DNA of 63,612 nucleotides, the filler included, from Actinomycetota bacterium (GTDB lineage Bacteria; Actinomycetota; Acidimicrobiia; Spongiisociales; UBA4744): the NCBI GenBank assembly GCA_013152275.1. It is 5 parts of 5 records of this genome, joined end to end, with 100 filler letters (N's around TTAATTAATTAA, not from the genome) between each part and the next. Parts side by side here need not be neighbours in the genome. Positions count along the whole stretch, not along the records: positions 50,106 to 55,032 come from JAADGS010000048.1; 4 more parts are not named here. One strand, 5' to 3'. Under the pieces are notes generated by a model. That model searched no databases. It saw only the letters and a list, made by a program, of their open reading frames with translations, and was not told where the DNA came from. How positions within the stretch are numbered: position 1 is the first letter of the stretch; every line of letters begins with the position of its first letter. Below are positions 26,009 through 60,132 of the stretch, one piece after another. The position numbers and the translations under genes were made by a program.

Positions 26009-26108
26009 NNNNNNNNNNNNNNNNNNNNNNNNNNNNNNNNNNNNNNNNNNNNTTAATTAATTAANNNNNNNNNNNNNNNNNNNNNNNNNNNNNNNNNNNN
26101 NNNNNNNN
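26009..26108. other. Artificial contig linker
   Basis: 100 nt: Ns with central TTAATTAATTAA six-frame stop. Confidence 0.99.
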
Positions 26109-50005: not shown

Positions 50006-50105
50006 NNNNNNNNNNNNNNNNNNNNNNNNNNNNNNNNNNNNNNNNNNNNTTAATTAATTAANNNNNNNNNNNNNNNNNNNNNNNNNNNNNNNNNNNNNNN
50101 NNNNN
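50006..50105. other. Artificial contig linker
   Basis: N/TTAATTAATTAA. Confidence 0.99.
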
Positions 50106-50276: not shown

Positions 50277-51497
50277 CTACACGACCCAGAGCAGCAGGCC
50301 GAGGCCCAGCAGGACCATGACGGCCCCGGTCGCGGCCCGTATGGTCCTCGACGAGGACCGCTCCCATGCCTGGATCTTGCCGCCCAGTACCGGGTCCAGT
50401 GCGAGGAACAGCACGACGATCAGCGGGAGGACGAACATCACGTTGTACAGCACGAGGTAGCCCACCCCCTGCCAGAAACTCGTCTGGCCGGCCAGCAGGC
50501 CCAGGACGGCCACGTACGGGCCTCCCGAGCAGGGGAACGTGTGCAGTCCCACCAGCGTCCCCAGCACCAGGGTCGTCGGCAACGTGGCCCGGTGCATCCA
50601 CGTCTGGAGCGATTCCTTGCTGCCCTCGGGCACCTTCAGGCGGAGAGGAAACCTGGGGAAGAGGGCGCCCAGCACGTTGATCAGGCCCAGCACCATCAGG
50701 AGAACTGCCCCCGCCTGGCCCAGCCAATGCCCCTTCAGCAGCGTCGAGGCACGCAGCAGACCCAACCCGATGAGGAAGTACACGATGTAGACCGCGCCGA
50801 TGTACACCGCACCCATGCGGATGACCGAGATACGCGTCTTACGGATGGTGAACAGGAAGGAGATGAAGAACAGCAGGATCGCCAGCGCACACGGATTGAT
50901 CCCGTCGACGAGCCCGGTCAGGAGCACCGTCGGGAGCAGCAGCCTGGTGGGTTTGTGGACGTCGGTCGCGAACCCGTCCCTGTTGGCGTCGAACCACGCC
51001 AGATACACCGAGATGGGTGTGTCCGCCGGATACGTCATGACCGGACCGGCGAACGCCCAGGCCTGGTACTCGCTGCGGTCCTGCTCTTCGCCGGCGACGA
51101 GAATCCGTTTCGGCAACGTTGCGTCCGCGGCCAGCAGCGCCTCCACCACGCTGCGGGGCGGTTCGCCCTGGAGGATGATGCGACCGTCGTCCACGAAGGT
51201 GGCGAGGTGGCTCTGCAGGTCCAACGGGACGCCCAGGCGGTCGTTCAACGCGTTGAAGTCCGCCCGGTTCTCACGCTCGTTGATGTAGTCGTGCTTCGTC
51301 AGGGGGATCCCGGCGGCGTCCATCACCTCGGTGAGTTCCCCCTCGACGTAGGTGACGCACTCGTCGCACGCCTCGTTGTAGTACACGACGGCCTCACGTT
51401 GCGCCGCGTCCGCCCTGGCCGGCAGGAGCAAGCTCCCCAGGACGAACGCCAGGAGGCTCACGCCCAGCAGGGCCGTCGTCGTCGTTTTCGTCTTCAT
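50277..51497 (-). CDS. Exported thioredoxin-like CxxC domain fused to a CcdA/DsbD-type membrane domain
   Basis: Signal peptide, YYNEACDEC, GLVDGINPCA, FPCSGGPY, six C-terminal TMs. Confidence 0.8.
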   Translation of the reverse strand: MKTKTTTTALLGVSLLAFVLGSLLLPARADAAQREAVVYYNEACDECVTYVEGELTEVMDAAGIPLTKHDYINERENRADFNALNDRLGVPLDLQSHLATFVDDGRIILQGEPPRSVVEALLAADATLPKRILVAGEEQDRSEYQAWAFAGPVMTYPADTPISVYLAWFDANRDGFATDVHKPTRLLLPTVLLTGLVDGINPCALAILLFFISFLFTIRKTRISVIRMGAVYIGAVYIVYFLIGLGLLRASTLLKGHWLGQAGAVLLMVLGLINVLGALFPRFPLRLKVPEGSKESLQTWMHRATLPTTLVLGTLVGLHTFPCSGGPYVAVLGLLAGQTSFWQGVGYLVLYNVMFVLPLIVVLFLALDPVLGGKIQAWERSSSRTIRAATGAVMVLLGLGLLLWVV

Positions 51498-51510
51498 CCT
51501 GTGGCTCTCT

Positions 51511-51864
51511 TCAACAGCAGGTCAGGGTCTCGGGGATCTCGCCCTCTTCGAGTTCCCCGAACGGATTCCCGTACCGGCGAATGTTGGCGATCATCGTCCT
51601 GTTCACGTCGGTCTCGACTCCGTTCGCCACCAGGCCGGCACGAATGGATTCCCCGTCCGGATCGTGGGTCACCGGGCAGAGTTCCCGGCAGGCGCGACAC
51701 AGCGTGCATTGATAGAACAGCACCGATGCGATCCTCGCCGAGGCCAGGATCGCCAATCCGCGCGGGCTGATCTGTTCCTGTCGCAGGATGCCGAAGACCG
51801 GACAGACTTCGCGGCACAGCCCACATTCGATGCAAGGCGGGTTCTCCGTTTGGGCGTTCAACAT
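51511..51864 (-). CDS. 4Fe-4S dicluster protein (GlcF/HdrC N-terminal-like)
   Basis: CIECGLCREVCP, SPRG, CTLCRACRELCP, GNPFG. Confidence 0.88.
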   Translation of the reverse strand: MLNAQTENPPCIECGLCREVCPVFGILRQEQISPRGLAILASARIASVLFYQCTLCRACRELCPVTHDPDGESIRAGLVANGVETDVNRTMIANIRRYGNPFGELEEGEIPETLTCC

Positions 51865-53033
51865 AGCTTCCCCCGGTTCAGCACACCCCGAGGGTCATAG
51901 GTGTCCTTGAGCCGGCGCACCTCGGCCCGATACCTCGCGGTGGTCCAGGCCTTCTTCTTCAGCCCGACGCCGTGCTCGCCGCTGACCTGGCCGCCCAGGT
52001 CCGCCACCCGGCCGTAGAGGGTGGCGATGCGTTCGTCGTCGGGGGGGAAACAGGGATGGATGATGCCGACCCCCAGGTGACCGAAGGCGGGGATGGCTTC
52101 GGTGTCGAGCCACGGCAACAGCACCGACAGCCCGGCGGCGTCCAGTTTCGGATCTTCGATGACCGGGTAGCCGCGCCCGGCGAGCACCGGGTACAGGCCG
52201 TCGCGGGCCCGCCACACGGCGTCGATCTGCTCCGGGTCGGTCAGCTCCCCGCCGTCGGAGTCGAACTCGCCCAGCAGATGGGGGAGAGGCTCCCAGCCGA
52301 TGGCGGCGGCGGCGTGACGGTTGAGATACTCGAGGGCCGTGAGGCGAGGGTCGCAGATCCATTCGTTCCGCCGGGCCGCCAACGCGTCTTCGTCGCCGTC
52401 GGCGAACAACGAGACGGTCCTCCGCTGTGGCAGCGGGGCCAGGCGCACCGTCGCCTCCACGATCAGGCCGGTGACACCTTCGCGCCCGACGACGTCGTCG
52501 AGTTCCTCCCCACCGATGCGAACAAGACGGCCTCGACCGTCGACGAGGGACAGTTCCTGCACCCAGCGGCGCATCGATCCGTACCGCACGGCACGCATCC
52601 CGGCGGCGTTGGTGGCGATCATGCCGCCGATCGTGGCTGCCCGCCGGCTGCCGGGAACGACAGGCAGGAAGAGGTCGTGCACGTTCAGAAGGCGGTTGAG
52701 GGATTCGAGGACCACTCCGGCCCCGACCCGTGCCGTTCGACCTGCGGGGTCGATGGAGGCGACGGTGTTCAGACGCGAGAGATCCACCACGACGGACCGC
52801 TGAGGGGTCGCCCCGCCACACAATCCGGTGCCCGCACCTCTCGGTGTCAAGTCCACGCCGGCCGCCTGCGCCCATTCGACCAGGGCGGCCACCTGGGGCG
52901 GCTGCGACGGCCAGACGACGGCCAGGCAATCCCCCTCCAGCCGGGAGGCGTCCCGCCGGTACACCACCAGGTCGTCGGCCGAGTCCGACACGTTTTGGGC
53001 CCCGACGATCCTGCGCAGCTCCGTCGTGTTCAT
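51858..53033 (-). CDS. FAD-binding oxidoreductase (GlcD/D-2-hydroxyacid dehydrogenase family)
   Basis: PRGAGTGLCGGA, TIGGMIATNAAG..RYG, GHLGVGIIH, SGEHGVG. Confidence 0.9.
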   Translation of the reverse strand: MNTTELRRIVGAQNVSDSADDLVVYRRDASRLEGDCLAVVWPSQPPQVAALVEWAQAAGVDLTPRGAGTGLCGGATPQRSVVVDLSRLNTVASIDPAGRTARVGAGVVLESLNRLLNVHDLFLPVVPGSRRAATIGGMIATNAAGMRAVRYGSMRRWVQELSLVDGRGRLVRIGGEELDDVVGREGVTGLIVEATVRLAPLPQRRTVSLFADGDEDALAARRNEWICDPRLTALEYLNRHAAAAIGWEPLPHLLGEFDSDGGELTDPEQIDAVWRARDGLYPVLAGRGYPVIEDPKLDAAGLSVLLPWLDTEAIPAFGHLGVGIIHPCFPPDDERIATLYGRVADLGGQVSGEHGVGLKKKAWTTARYRAEVRRLKDTYDPRGVLNRGKLC

Positions 53034-53749
53034 GGCGCAGGTTCCGGGTCGGTGCCGCGGGCCAGCGCCTCGCTGAACTCCAGCACCTCGACGCCGTCGG
53101 CGTTCTGCTTGAAGTGCGCGTAACAGAGGGGACAGGCGGTGCACAGACGCCCGTTGTTCACCATGTCGAGGCGTTGGCAGGCGATCGCATCGGCCAGCTC
53201 GGGGAAGTTGGACTTCAGGCCGCCGCCGGCGCCACAGCAGAGGCTCTGTTCGCGGTTGTCGGGCAGCTCGGTGACGCTCCATCCGGCCGCAGCGAGGAGC
53301 CGTCGGGGCTCCTCGTAGATGCCGGACCAGCGGCCCAGATGGCAGGGATCGTGGTAGGTGAGATCCCCTGTGCCGGTCCCGTCCTCGCTCTGCTCATCCG
53401 GGCGGAGCTCCGCCAGCGCCTGGGAGACATGGATCGCATCCAGGCCGTAGTCGTGCGCGAGTGTGTGGTAGCAGCCGGGGCAGTTCGTGATGACCTTGCG
53501 GACGCTGAACCTGGCGAACACTTCGAGGTTCTTCGCCTTGAGCTCTTCGAACTCGTCGAGGTAGCCGGCCCGTTTGACCGGACTTCCACAGCACAAGGTC
53601 TCGCCGGGAAGCATGATGAAATCGATGCCGGCACGACGCAACAGGGCTTCGTAGCCCGCCTGGATATCCGGCAGGGCGTAGCGGGTCACGCAGCCGGGGT
53701 AGTAGAGCGTGTTGCTCCCGGAGAGTTTCTCCAACCATCGTTTGAGAAT
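53030..53749 (-). CDS. CCG-domain Fe-S protein (GlcF/HdrD C-terminal-like); start ATT 53749 or TTG 53734
   Basis: YYPGC, CCGSP, NCPGC, YHDPCHLGR, CCGAGGG, TACPLC. Confidence 0.88.
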   Translation of the reverse strand: MLKRWLEKLSGSNTLYYPGCVTRYALPDIQAGYEALLRRAGIDFIMLPGETLCCGSPVKRAGYLDEFEELKAKNLEVFARFSVRKVITNCPGCYHTLAHDYGLDAIHVSQALAELRPDEQSEDGTGTGDLTYHDPCHLGRWSGIYEEPRRLLAAAGWSVTELPDNREQSLCCGAGGGLKSNFPELADAIACQRLDMVNNGRLCTACPLCYAHFKQNADGVEVLEFSEALARGTDPEPAP

Positions 53750-53758
53750 GGCCGTCTC

Positions 53759-54181
53759 CTAGCTGTCTGCCTTACGGATGGTTGCGCGAAACTCCACCTG
53801 CGCCTCGGGTGTCTCCGGGTCATTGCTGCGGACGTAGATGAGTCGCATCACGTCGCCGTGCAGGTTGTCTTCGATCGGATCGAGTGTGACGCGCAGCTCG
53901 GTGGTTTCGCCCGGTGGGATGGTCTCGCGCTCTACCGACGCCTTCGTGCAACCGCAGGAGGTACTGACCTTCTCGATCTGCAGGACATCGTCTCCGTCGT
54001 TTCGAATCGTGTAGCTCGCTTCGAGAGGTTCTTGGGGAACCTCACCCAGGTCTTGTGAGGCAGGCTCGATGACGATACGCGGGGAGCTGGTGGCGCAACC
54101 GGAGAACAAAACGACAACCAGCACGATGAGGACTATGAGCCCCATTCTCCATGCCCACGGTGAAGGATTTCTGGTGGTCAC
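53759..54181 (-). CDS. DUF1573 Ig-like lipoprotein
   Basis: Lipobox FSGC, IRNDG..LQI..VSTSCGCT, IPPGE, SNDP. Confidence 0.82.
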   Translation of the reverse strand: MTTRNPSPWAWRMGLIVLIVLVVVLFSGCATSSPRIVIEPASQDLGEVPQEPLEASYTIRNDGDDVLQIEKVSTSCGCTKASVERETIPPGETTELRVTLDPIEDNLHGDVMRLIYVRSNDPETPEAQVEFRATIRKADS

Positions 54182-54356: not shown

Positions 54357-54869
54357 TCAGTAGTCGAACGGCTCCAGGGCTCCGTCGGTCTTGATCAGCA
54401 TCACCGGCAGGGACTCCCAGGTCGAGGTGTCGCCACCCATGCCGGGAGAATCCGACGGCATGCCCGGTAGCGCCAGTCCGATCGCGTCGGGCTTCGTTTC
54501 GAGGAGTCGCAGGATCGCGCCGGCAGGCACGTGCCCCTCGATGACATAGCCGTCCACCACGGCGGTGTGGCACGAATGCGCCTCCTCCGGGATGCCGCTC
54601 GAGAGTTTGAATGATTCGATTTGCTCGTCGACCTGCACGTCGAGGTCTGCTCCGAGATCTTGTAGGTACCCGACCCACTCTGTGCAGCATCCTCAGCCGG
54701 GGGGTACGTGGATTTCCATGGCCACGCCGGTCAGATCCAGGCTGCGAGCCGTTCCGGCGGCCGTGGCCGTGGTGGGAGCGGTGGTCGTAGTGGTGGTGGT
54801 CGCGGCCCCGCCGCAGGCTGCCACCAGCAGCGCCAAGGTTACGAACACGGCGAAATGCTTCACGGTCAT
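54357..54869 (-). CDS. DUF411/CopG-like lipoprotein with in-frame UGA at 54693-54695 (putative selenocysteine)
   Basis: Two track ORFs are one frame: LVAAC lipobox..HVPPG-U-GCCTEWVGYL..SCHTAVVDGYVIEGHVP..GLALPGMPSDSPGM. Confidence 0.8.
54662..54678 (-). promoter_or_regulatory. Candidate bacterial SECIS hairpin
   Basis: GUGGGU-CGGGU-ACCUAC stem-loop starting 14 nt after the UGA; G at loop position 2. Confidence 0.5.
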
Positions 54870-54979
54870 CCCTCCGTTTTGGTTGCCGTAATGTAGCAAG
54901 AGGCCTTATGTCGCCAAAACCGAGCCACGTCTTTTCTTTCCCCTCGCCTCGGGTGCTTCCCCTGCTCGGAAGGTTATCT

Positions 54980-55032
54980 ACCCCATCGGCCTCGGCCAAA
55001 GCCCCGAGGCCACTTCACCTGCTAGGGGAAGC
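54980..55032. repeat. REP-like hairpin related to the 50106-50249 repeats, opposite orientation
   Basis: ACCCCATCGGCCTCG..CGAGGCCACTTCACCT..AGGGG vs reverse complement CCCCATCGCCTCG..GGCACTTCCCCT..AGGGG. Confidence 0.5.
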
Positions 55033-55132
55033 NNNNNNNNNNNNNNNNNNNNNNNNNNNNNNNNNNNNNNNNNNNNTTAATTAATTAANNNNNNNNNNNN
55101 NNNNNNNNNNNNNNNNNNNNNNNNNNNNNNNN
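55033..55132. other. Artificial contig linker
   Basis: N/TTAATTAATTAA. Confidence 0.99.
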
Positions 55133-56361
55133 CCGCTGGTGGTGTAGGTGTGGCCGAGTTTGGTGGTCCAGTGGTGGTCGCCGTCGGGGAGGGGCTGGTA
55201 GGTCCATCCGGCGTCGTGTCGGATGCGGTGGTCGTGGCGGCAAAGGGGGACGAGGTTGGTGATGGTGGTGGGGCCGCCGTCGGCGTACGGTGTGCGATGG
55301 TCGAGGTCGCAGCTCGCGGCGGGCATGCGGCATCCGGGGAAGACGCAGGTCGGGTTGCGGGCTTCGGCGAGTCTGCGTTGGCCGGTGGTGGGTCGCCGGC
55401 GTGTGGTGCCCTGGTAGGTGGGCTGTCCGGTATCGGGGTCGGTGACGGTGAAGTGCCATTGGCCGGCTTGTTGTTGTTCGGTGACGTGTCGGGCGATGTC
55501 GGCGATGACTGGCCCGTAGCCGGCCAGCTCGCCGGGGTGATCGGCGAGATTCGTCAGGGTTTGGAGGTCGACGTGGATTTCGACGGCGCCTGTGGTCTTG
55601 GTGGCGTAGCCGGGTGTGCCTTCGAGGAGGTCCAGGAAGACGTCGGCGCGCAGTTGGTCCATGGTGCGGGACTCGCCGGCGGTCTTGAGGCTGCGGGCGA
55701 GTTGATTGATCTTCGCGGCTGCGGCGGTGACCCGATCGGGGGCGAGGTCGAGGCCGAGGAGGTGAGCGGTGCCCGATTCGGTCGGTTCTGCGATGAGGCG
55801 CCGTTCGTCGATTGCTCGCCGGTACCGTTGCTGCGCATCGTCGGGGTCGATATCGATACAGAGCCTGCGGATCCGTGCTGCGAGCTGCCCGGACGTGAGG
55901 TGAGACGCATCCGCCATCACCCGGTCGGTGACATCGCGGGCGAGACCGATCGGCAGATGTTCGGTCCCGAAGCTGATGGTCTTGGCGCGACGCAGGTCGA
56001 TATCCCCGCCGGCAAGGCGATCCCAGACTCGGGGGAGACGCTGTCTCAGGACGAAAGCGAACGCAAGCTCCGAGTCGGCGGCCCGTCGGGTCAACCGCAA
56101 CGCGACCCGGATCTCGGCCGCCGCGGACTCTATCGCCAACGGGTCGTCGGGGTCGCCCATCGCGTCGGCGACGGCAGCCATGTCCTCGTAGGTGTGGGCC
56201 TGGTAGTGCGACGCCATCCGCCGATGGGCCCGCAGCACCACGATACGGTCATATCCTGACAGCTTCCCGACATCGATCGTCGACAGGAACGCAGCCAACA
56301 CCGGACCCGGCTCCATCTCATCGAGCCGGCGAGGAATCGGTTCAACCTTGCCATCGAACAT
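55133..56361 (-). CDS. DUF222-HNH endonuclease (13E12 repeat-like), last codons cut by linker
   Basis: RTMDQLRAD, LAGYGPV, CVFPGC..CDLDH..GGPT..NLVPLCRHDHRIRH. Confidence 0.9.
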
Positions 56362-56369
56362 ATGTTCGA
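56354..56369 (-). promoter_or_regulatory. Perfect LexA (SOS) box overlapping the start codon
   Basis: TCGAACATATGTTCGA palindrome; minus-strand TATGAT at 56374-56369. Confidence 0.88.
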
Positions 56370-56629
56370 TCATACACGGCTACACCGACAAAAACTACCC
56401 CCGAAAACTCGCATGTCGAGCTGCCATCCGGCTCGTCCCGTCATGCCGGCCGAGAGCCCGGCCATGGTCGCGGACGCACTCGGAGACACGAGCACGATGA
56501 CCGCCCCTCGAACATCGACGAAGAGACCGATCGGTGCCGCTTTCGGTGGGTGACGGGCGCGTGTTCGCCCGCGATTCACCGGCACGAAATGCAATACTTG
56601 GTGTCCTACGCAAGTGGAAGGAGACAGAC

Positions 56630-60032: not shown

Positions 60033-60132
60033 NNNNNNNNNNNNNNNNNNNNNNNNNNNNNNNNNNNNNNNNNNNNTTAATTAATTAANNNNNNNNNNNN
60101 NNNNNNNNNNNNNNNNNNNNNNNNNNNNNNNN
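60033..60132. other. Artificial contig linker
   Basis: N/TTAATTAATTAA. Confidence 0.99.

Follow-up and report, generated by a model that had tools for sequence, protein, structure and literature searches.

A DUF411/CopG-family lipoprotein gene with an in-frame TGA in an Acidimicrobiia genome: a likely selenoprotein form of a known copper-protein family

A single in-frame TGA divides one gene in the stretch of DNA analysed here (the window, 63,612 nucleotides from the actinomycetote assembly GCA_013152275.1), and the question that it raises is whether the codon ends a protein or is read as selenocysteine (Sec). The window joins five unrelated contigs with N-spacers at 26009-26108, 50006-50105, 55033-55132, and 60033-60132. 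The gene is located close to one end of a 4,927-base contig (C45; 50,106-55,032 of the window) from a 3.07-Mb genome rated 100% complete and 0.89% contaminated, with Acidimicrobiia as its nearest named relatives. Because the spacers join separate contigs, the genes past 55032 and those ahead of 50106 do not adjoin it; one of these, a DUF222-HNH endonuclease gene (55081-56373, minus strand), belongs to the next contig. The contig itself ends in a repeated element (54960-55030), for which the sequencing runs show a very high summed contig depth and numerous loose ends.

The open reading frame listing gives two minus-strand frames, 54693-54899 and 54357-54638, which share one reading frame and are separated only by the TGA at 54695-54693. 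With this codon translated as U, the product runs without interruption through a lipobox, a Thr/Ala linker, the segment EIHVPPG-U-GCCTEWVGYL, and the motifs SCHTA, IEGHVP, PGMP, and SPGM. An earlier note on this DNA had described the same arrangement, with one TGA and no other lesion, and our translation agrees. A GGAGG motif (54875-54871) stands 7 nt before GTG 54863 and 1 nt before ATG 54869, and this difference in spacing makes the GTG the more likely start. No promoter or terminator consensus was found. Features are collected in Table 1. On the evidence below, this is very probably one intact gene, with an internal TGA likely read as Sec, for a predicted exported copper redox protein of the CopG family.

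Table 1. Predicted features of the DUF411/CopG gene, in window coordinates; residues are numbered from ATG 54869.
Feature	Position	Strand	Basis or remark
Putative ribosome-binding site, GGAGG	54871..54875	-	Sequence; predicted function
Read-through coding sequence, DUF411/CopG lipoprotein, true TGA stop at end	54357..54869	-	170 aa (ATG 54869) or 168 aa (GTG 54863)
Lipoprotein signal peptide, ending in lipobox Cys (54815-54813)	54813..54863	-	Sequence; predicted lipidation
Thr/Ala-rich linker	54735..54812	-	Sequence; model pLDDT ~60 over residues 1-40
In-frame TGA, predicted selenocysteine U59	54693..54695	-	Aligns to residue 13 of 6WIS_A
U-G-C-C motif, start of helix 1 of thioredoxin-like fold	54684..54695	-	Sequence, 6WIS alignment, model
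Predicted SECIS: 6-bp stem, loop CGGGU at +21..+25, GGUC at +18	54662..54678	-	Fold and homologue conservation
Cys-His of SCHT (C100, H101), predicted metal ligands	54567..54572	-	Invariant in 84 aligned sequences; role by analogy with CopG
EGH motif (E111, H113)	54531..54539	-	Homologue alignment
M-x6-M (M137, M144), given as CopG/CutG copper-ligand pair in PMC8456105	54438..54461	-	72/72 TGA genes

The read-through protein matches PF04214 (DUF411) with an E-value of 5e-25 (87 bits vs. a cut-off of 27). The only solved sequence that it matches is CopG (6WIS/6WJE; E 8e-23), and U falls opposite the first Cys of the CxCC motif, where the earlier note had placed it. An AlphaFold2 model, built from an 84-row alignment with Cys substituted for Sec, has a mean pLDDT of 87.9. 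In a Foldseek search with this model, CopG chains made up all five matches at E <= 0.001 (E 1e-10, target-normalised TM 0.83-0.85, identity 35-37%), with thioredoxin and glutaredoxin folds weaker and ranked behind them.

Homologues were pooled from named genomes, genomes of the class, relatives, and 80 metagenome loci (the metagenome query was built from Cys forms), leaving out six loci that lack the full motif. The codon at the site is TGA, TGC, or TGT in all 185 motif hits; TAA, TAG, and the Trp codon do not occur there. Collapsing at 95% identity left 145 genes, comprising 72 with TGA, nine closely related Cys forms, and 64 distant Cys forms; among these, Sec is confined to the first motif position and never takes the place of the other two Cys. 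Thirteen of 14 matches in 11 of 61 genomes (the query and 60 relatives) hold one TGA. The gene occurs in 21 of 401 Acidimicrobiia genomes (18 TGA, two Cys, one fragment), so that within this sample the TGA form is commoner than the Cys form. A scan of named genomes gave 26 genes at the 25 closest loci (25 TGA and one TGT) and Cys at all 54 more distant loci, and none of six matches from elsewhere in the phylum (400 sampled genomes) has an internal stop. Eight families, from two or more orders, contain TGA forms, which are 51-94% identical to the query. The established Sec forms are from Acidimicrobiia; three TGA loci (L026, L030, and L031) carry titles of other groups. Two of these were rejected as evidence of a wider distribution: the selA coordinates of the L030 genome are those of a same-order genome, and L026 is a 3.4-kb contig. 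In one relative, a cytochrome c gene is immediately followed by a second DUF411 copy that lacks its 5' end (L021, G035:C19:58718-58936), likely a decayed duplicate.

Were the TGA a true stop, the locus would be a pseudogene, or would encode a short lipopeptide followed by a re-initiated C-terminal protein. Gene callers do split the gene, as the earlier note had expected of ordinary annotation, and many of the best 120 protein matches are fragments of about 104 aa. These fragments start immediately past the motif, as expected if the TGA is taken for a stop. The weak hairpin described below, the lack of an intact tRNA-Sec gene in the assembly, and the truncated copy L021 are also points in favor of termination. 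Against it stands, besides the absence of TAA and TAG from the 185 hits, the retention of Cys+2 and Cys+3 in 72 of 72 TGA genes with synonymous variation; codons flanking the TGA on both sides likewise show synonymous in-frame variation. At the GTG codon from which the 104-aa calls start, 35 of 72 genes, the query included, have GGG, and a re-initiated product would have neither an export signal nor the CxCC motif. Downstream of the TGA, pN is below pS in 68 of 68 comparisons, dN/dS against the same-genus genome is 0.024/0.134 (~0.18), and the length from U to the stop is the same in 69 of 72 TGA genes. The downstream frame is under purifying selection, not the relaxed selection that would have spoken against the earlier note, and termination at this codon is very improbable.

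The position of the gene close to the end of a 4.9-kb contig could point to a sequencing or assembly error. However, Logan contigs from three runs of one hydrothermal vent metagenome study (X1, X2, and X3, one of which may be the source sample) span the codon unchanged, and TGA is kept in the 72 non-redundant genes. Contigs from the runs and relatives both bear out the codon; error is refuted as an explanation, and we give it a negligible probability.

Decoding as Sec requires machinery, and the query genome encodes SelA, SelB, and SelD, all above family cut-offs; selA and selB are adjacent on contig C83, and selD, on C87, has an in-frame TGA of its own. This part of what the earlier note proposed to check is borne out; the tRNA-Sec gene is interrupted by a gap between contigs. 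ARAGORN, Rfam, and a pattern scan recovered no intact copy from the assembly, and among 536 candidates the 150 that were scored included none above the cut-off. The explanation is that the locus falls on the break between C5, which ends in tandem copies of the 5' part, and C87, which ends in the 3' tip. The gene is intact in the same-genus genome (used as the alignment query), and a 195-base contig from run X2 with query-genome flank spans the whole tRNA-Sec. The tandem 67-nt repeats at this break (G000:C5:108285-108438 and the C87 end; L219, L220), each with the tRNA-Sec 5' part, interrupt the assembly at selC; in the same-genus genome G002, what lies next to tRNA-Sec is instead a degenerate copy of its 3' part.

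Each of the 18 TGA genomes in the class sample contains selA, against a background of 282 of 401 (a tally that includes seven unpublished genomes). A further survey tested 43 genomes, from which four with Cys forms or fragments and two duplicates were removed; selA is present in 35 of the remaining 37 distinct TGA-bearing genomes, the completeness of the other two not being given. Since related genomes do not count as independent cases and selA is frequent in the order, we treat this co-occurrence as supporting, not decisive. Judged by those 282 selA-bearing genomes, Sec use is widespread in Acidimicrobiia.

Family scans confirmed three further selenoprotein-type genes in the query genome: selD, fdhA (over its cut-off), and an AhpD-like gene (above the cut-off of TIGR01926), each with an in-frame TGA. 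The FdhA and AhpD-like families are both in a published selenoprotein inventory (PMC13188914). In SelD, FdhA, and AhpD-like genes the sequence GGUC stands in hairpin loops at +13, +19, and +19, respectively, compared with a background of 5.1% of 78,660 TGA triplets. In the AhpD-like gene (G000:C30:14431-15006, minus strand; L218), which has a CxxU motif, a hairpin with the loop GGUCU stands at +19; fdhA (C9:34725) has this loop at the identical position. These genes also bear on whether UGA might be read as Cys or Trp, through a reassigned code or leaky suppression. The query gene and many window genes terminate in TGA, Trp codons are absent from the site in the 185 hits, and the genome holds Sec genes together with known selenoprotein-type genes that share the downstream motif; we consider a Cys or Trp reading extremely unlikely. 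The TGA is very probably decoded as Sec, a prediction that draws on codon conservation, machinery, and downstream elements together.

The earlier note had proposed a SECIS-like hairpin 14 nt past the UGA; its position and loop pattern hold, while its folding is weak and no more stable than that of shuffled sequences. The 6-bp stem and 5-nt loop are the minimum-energy local fold at +15 to +31 after the TGA (54678-54662), with the loop at +21 to +25. Across four windows, z-scores against shuffles range from -1.0 to +1.0. The core has an energy of -6.6 kcal/mol and the 57-nt window -14.1 kcal/mol, where the bacterial SECIS (bSECIS) stability criterion is an MFE of -7.5 kcal/mol or lower; Cys genes also pass this value on the long window. 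The published bSECIS model, as given in PMC13188914, has a 3-9 nt loop, a 4-16 bp stem, and an early-loop G[G/U] at 16-37 nt from the UGA, and the query hairpin fits this geometry (5-nt loop, 6 bp, C-G-G, 20 nt). What lies above chance is the conservation of the TGA and hairpin nucleotides across homologues, not the stability of a single hairpin.

The loop CG[G/U]GU is found in 61 of 72 TGA genes (absent from 11), in two of nine close Cys genes, and in none of 64 distant ones, and across the family the loop position of G[G/U] shows only G/U variation. GGUC at +17 or +18, encoded through Trp-Val or Trp-Ser codons, is present in 67 of 72 TGA genes (missing from five), three of nine close Cys genes, and 15 of 64 distant ones. 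Codon choice is nearly fixed in TGA genes: Val+7 is GTC in 62 of 66, Gly+8 GGG in 35 of 35, Val+8 GTG in 28 of 31, and Gly+5 GGG in 22 of 23. At the fourfold-degenerate codons +5, +7, and +8 one codon thus accounts for 90-100%, compared with a median of about 0.50 and a maximum of 0.86 in the other 57 columns. All 72 TGA genes have C as the last base of codon +9 (vs. 44 of 72 at another Tyr). At Leu+10, 64 of 67 use CTG or CTA, so that a U-G or U-A pair is preserved; the rare CTA is used there in 22 of 67 genes, against 11 of 625 elsewhere. The outer pair (+15/+31) is kept in 68 of 72 TGA genes, with three G-C to C-G swaps, and in 14 of 73 Cys genes (four of nine close, 10 of 64 distant).

Support for the fold is more mixed. 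RNAalifold over the 72 TGA genes returned no consensus hairpin, and the Trp and Tyr/His codons by themselves dictate several of the stem pairs, which occur in Cys genes as well. Real codons give a higher hairpin probability than synonymous recoding in only 46 of 72 genes (median 0.25 vs. 0.08), and in the query gene the values are 0.79 and 0.09. A cis-acting element downstream of the TGA is well supported by these sequence patterns; its exact fold is not. Codon +8 encodes Gly or Val in 66 of 72 TGA forms and Glu or Asp in six of nine close Cys forms, and the DUF411 family may serve as an example of a SECIS constraining protein sequence.

To relate the Sec and Cys forms, a tree of 144 proteins was built with FastTree, the Sec site and SECIS codons being masked; it held 72 Sec and 57 close Cys proteins, and 15 taken from the 64 distant Cys forms served as outgroup. 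The two forms are interleaved, requiring 11 parsimony changes on a tree whose deep nodes are weakly supported. Close Cys genes favor TGT (five of nine vs. three of 64 distant genes), and one of them, L101, still carries the loop sequence; for these reasons the data suggest repeated reversion from TGA to Cys.

What the protein does is less certain than how its gene is read. All the further CopG-site residues (C61, C100, H101, E111, H113, M137, and M144) are retained, and if the TGA is Sec, the CxCC of CopG is UxCC here, with M-x6-M present. U59, C61, and C62, together with C100, H101, E111, H113, M137, and M144, probably form a CopG-type metal site. CopG is described as a periplasmic, thioredoxin-like protein in which CxCC and two methionines bind a tetranuclear copper cluster, and which acts as a copper oxidoreductase and contributes to copper resistance under anaerobic conditions (PMC7558416, PMC8456105, PMC8872213); in Rhodobacter, the Cys and Met motifs of CutG are reported as dispensable for CutO activity (PMC8456105). 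Judged from the signal region and lipobox read in the sequence, the protein is probably lipidated, with its Thr-rich linker holding it at the outside of the membrane, and a loose lipobox pattern is found in 71 of 71 TGA homologues having enough upstream sequence. A twin-arginine-like pattern, also loosely defined, occurs in the signal region of 17 of these 71 (e.g., L107, L109, and L110), which suggests that some TGA-form members, though not the query protein, are exported via Tat.

The neighborhood bears on function in both directions. No copper genes were found at the query locus in Pfam and NCBIfam scans of the neighbors, and the copper role is for this reason less certain than the Sec reading. 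The window neighbors (DUF1573, CCG-domain, FAD-oxidase, 4Fe-4S, and DsbD-like genes) form a redox set. Those other than DUF1573 make up a compact block at 50277-53734 (minus strand), in which the DsbD/ArsG-like membrane gene encodes an N-terminal CxxC. Downstream (53759-54181, minus strand) is a DUF1573 protein with a lipoprotein-like N-terminus and a weak match to the OS_HP2 (seleno)protein model. DUF1573 appears among the published selenoprotein families (PMC13188914), but the SCGC motif of this copy has Cys. The block is conserved at 88% in the same-genus genome G002, and is not among the recurring neighbors of other DUF411 loci. P-type ATPases lie at 16 of 81 loci (by heuristic ORF calling). 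Among 134 neighbors at the 31 longer TGA loci, metal transport or resistance genes occur within 2.6 kb at 10 loci and copper-specific Pfam families at two of these. Four short TGA loci have ATPases bearing what we take to be copper-type motifs, and many neighboring P-type ATPases are without such presumed motifs. Cupredoxin and CopC/CopD genes flank some TGA loci, and multiheme or single c-type cytochrome genes adjoin the Sec-DUF411 gene at L032, L154, L179, L022, and L170.

Some of this would suit a selenoprotein engaged in extracytoplasmic thiol/disulfide or general heavy-metal redox through UxxC chemistry, for example one serving the nearby DsbD-like, CCG, Fe-S, and c-type cytochrome proteins. 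U is first in UxxC on a thioredoxin-like fold, the redox set adjoins the gene in the window and its block persists in the same-genus genome, cytochrome c or redoxin genes stand beside several other TGA loci, and many of the adjoining ATPases presumably are not of copper type. A plain thioredoxin, however, would have no need of the conserved Cys, His, Glu, and Met residues of the CopG site; the redox block does not recur at other loci, and cupredoxin, CopC/CopD, and presumed copper-type ATPase genes flank some of them. We regard a thiol or general metal role as possible and less probable than not, and lean modestly toward copper redox or detoxification as the job of the protein, over another metal or a thiol reaction. 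Of the membrane-tethered, Sec-dependent copper/thiol redox protein that the earlier note had envisaged, the Sec reading and CopG homology stand, while the copper role is homology-based and its query neighborhood is without copper genes.

Taken as a copper-handling selenoprotein, it could work as follows. SelB would recognize the hairpin at +15 to +31 and bring Sec-tRNA to the internal UGA, a step that we predict with high confidence. The product would be a membrane-anchored, exported CopG-family protein with its Thr-rich linker outside the membrane. It would likely bind a copper cluster and use its selenium, on the extracytoplasmic side, to convert Cu(I) and Cu(II) into each other or to pass them on; U59, at the N-terminal position of a thioredoxin-like UxxC, may act as a low-pKa selenolate in electron relay or as a direct copper ligand. 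More speculatively, and doubtful as a whole, this may be a natural enzyme with a multi-copper cluster bridged or ligated by selenocysteine and tethered at the cell surface, which arose in Acidimicrobiia and passed through about eleven Sec/Cys switches with decay of the SECIS in Cys forms. If that were true, Sec/Cys switching would yield matched natural selenium and sulfur versions of one copper site.

DUF411, PF04214, and CopG do not appear among the 119 prokaryotic selenoprotein families in Table 1 of a 2026 compilation (PMC13188914). A term search of the main texts of BSepDB and deep-Sep and of four deep-Sep supplements gave no DUF411 or CopG, though the BSepDB database itself could list the family, and passages of an Actinomarina preprint do not name it. 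Searches of full-text literature found no paper joining DUF411 with selenocysteine and none linking a selenoprotein family to CopG, although paper supplements could hold one; selenocysteine, CopG, and copper occur together, as single mentions, in genome or transcriptome papers. NCBIfam 20 has no model for the DUF411 family. What we describe is a predicted selenoprotein form of a known copper-protein family, likely new to the prokaryotic selenoprotein inventory. Current annotation cuts it in two and leaves a fragment without the export signal and active site. The selenium would be placed at CxCC, which secondary sources describe as the copper-cluster binding motif of CopG, and with close Sec/Cys pairs, a small soluble domain, and a solved homologue, the gain from selenium over sulfur at a metal site is directly testable.

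The closest known systems are CopG of Pseudomonas aeruginosa and CutG of Rhodobacter capsulatus, which share the fold, the aligned CxCC, SCHT, EGHVP, and M-x6-M motifs, and export (predicted here). The protein differs from both in that its first CxCC Cys is encoded by TGA, and from CopG, described as periplasmic in Gram-negative bacteria, in being a predicted lipoprotein with a Thr-rich linker whose gene lies outside any cop/cus/cueO cluster. With the UxxC thioredoxin-fold selenoproteins (Trx, Grx, DsbA-like, and SaoT; PMC13188914, Table 1) it has in common Sec (predicted here) as the first residue of UxxC, widespread Cys homologues, and a downstream hairpin; unlike them, it has an extra motif Cys (UxCC) and the His, Glu, and Met residues of the CopG site. 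Sec likewise replaces a candidate metal-binding Cys in the predicted metal-handling selenoproteins of the same compilation (cation-transporting ATPase E1-E2, CopZ-family 2Fe-2S, SO_0444 Cu/Zn transporter, and mercuric transport protein), but those four have unrelated folds, and the compilation presents none of them as a multi-copper cluster enzyme (PMC13188914).
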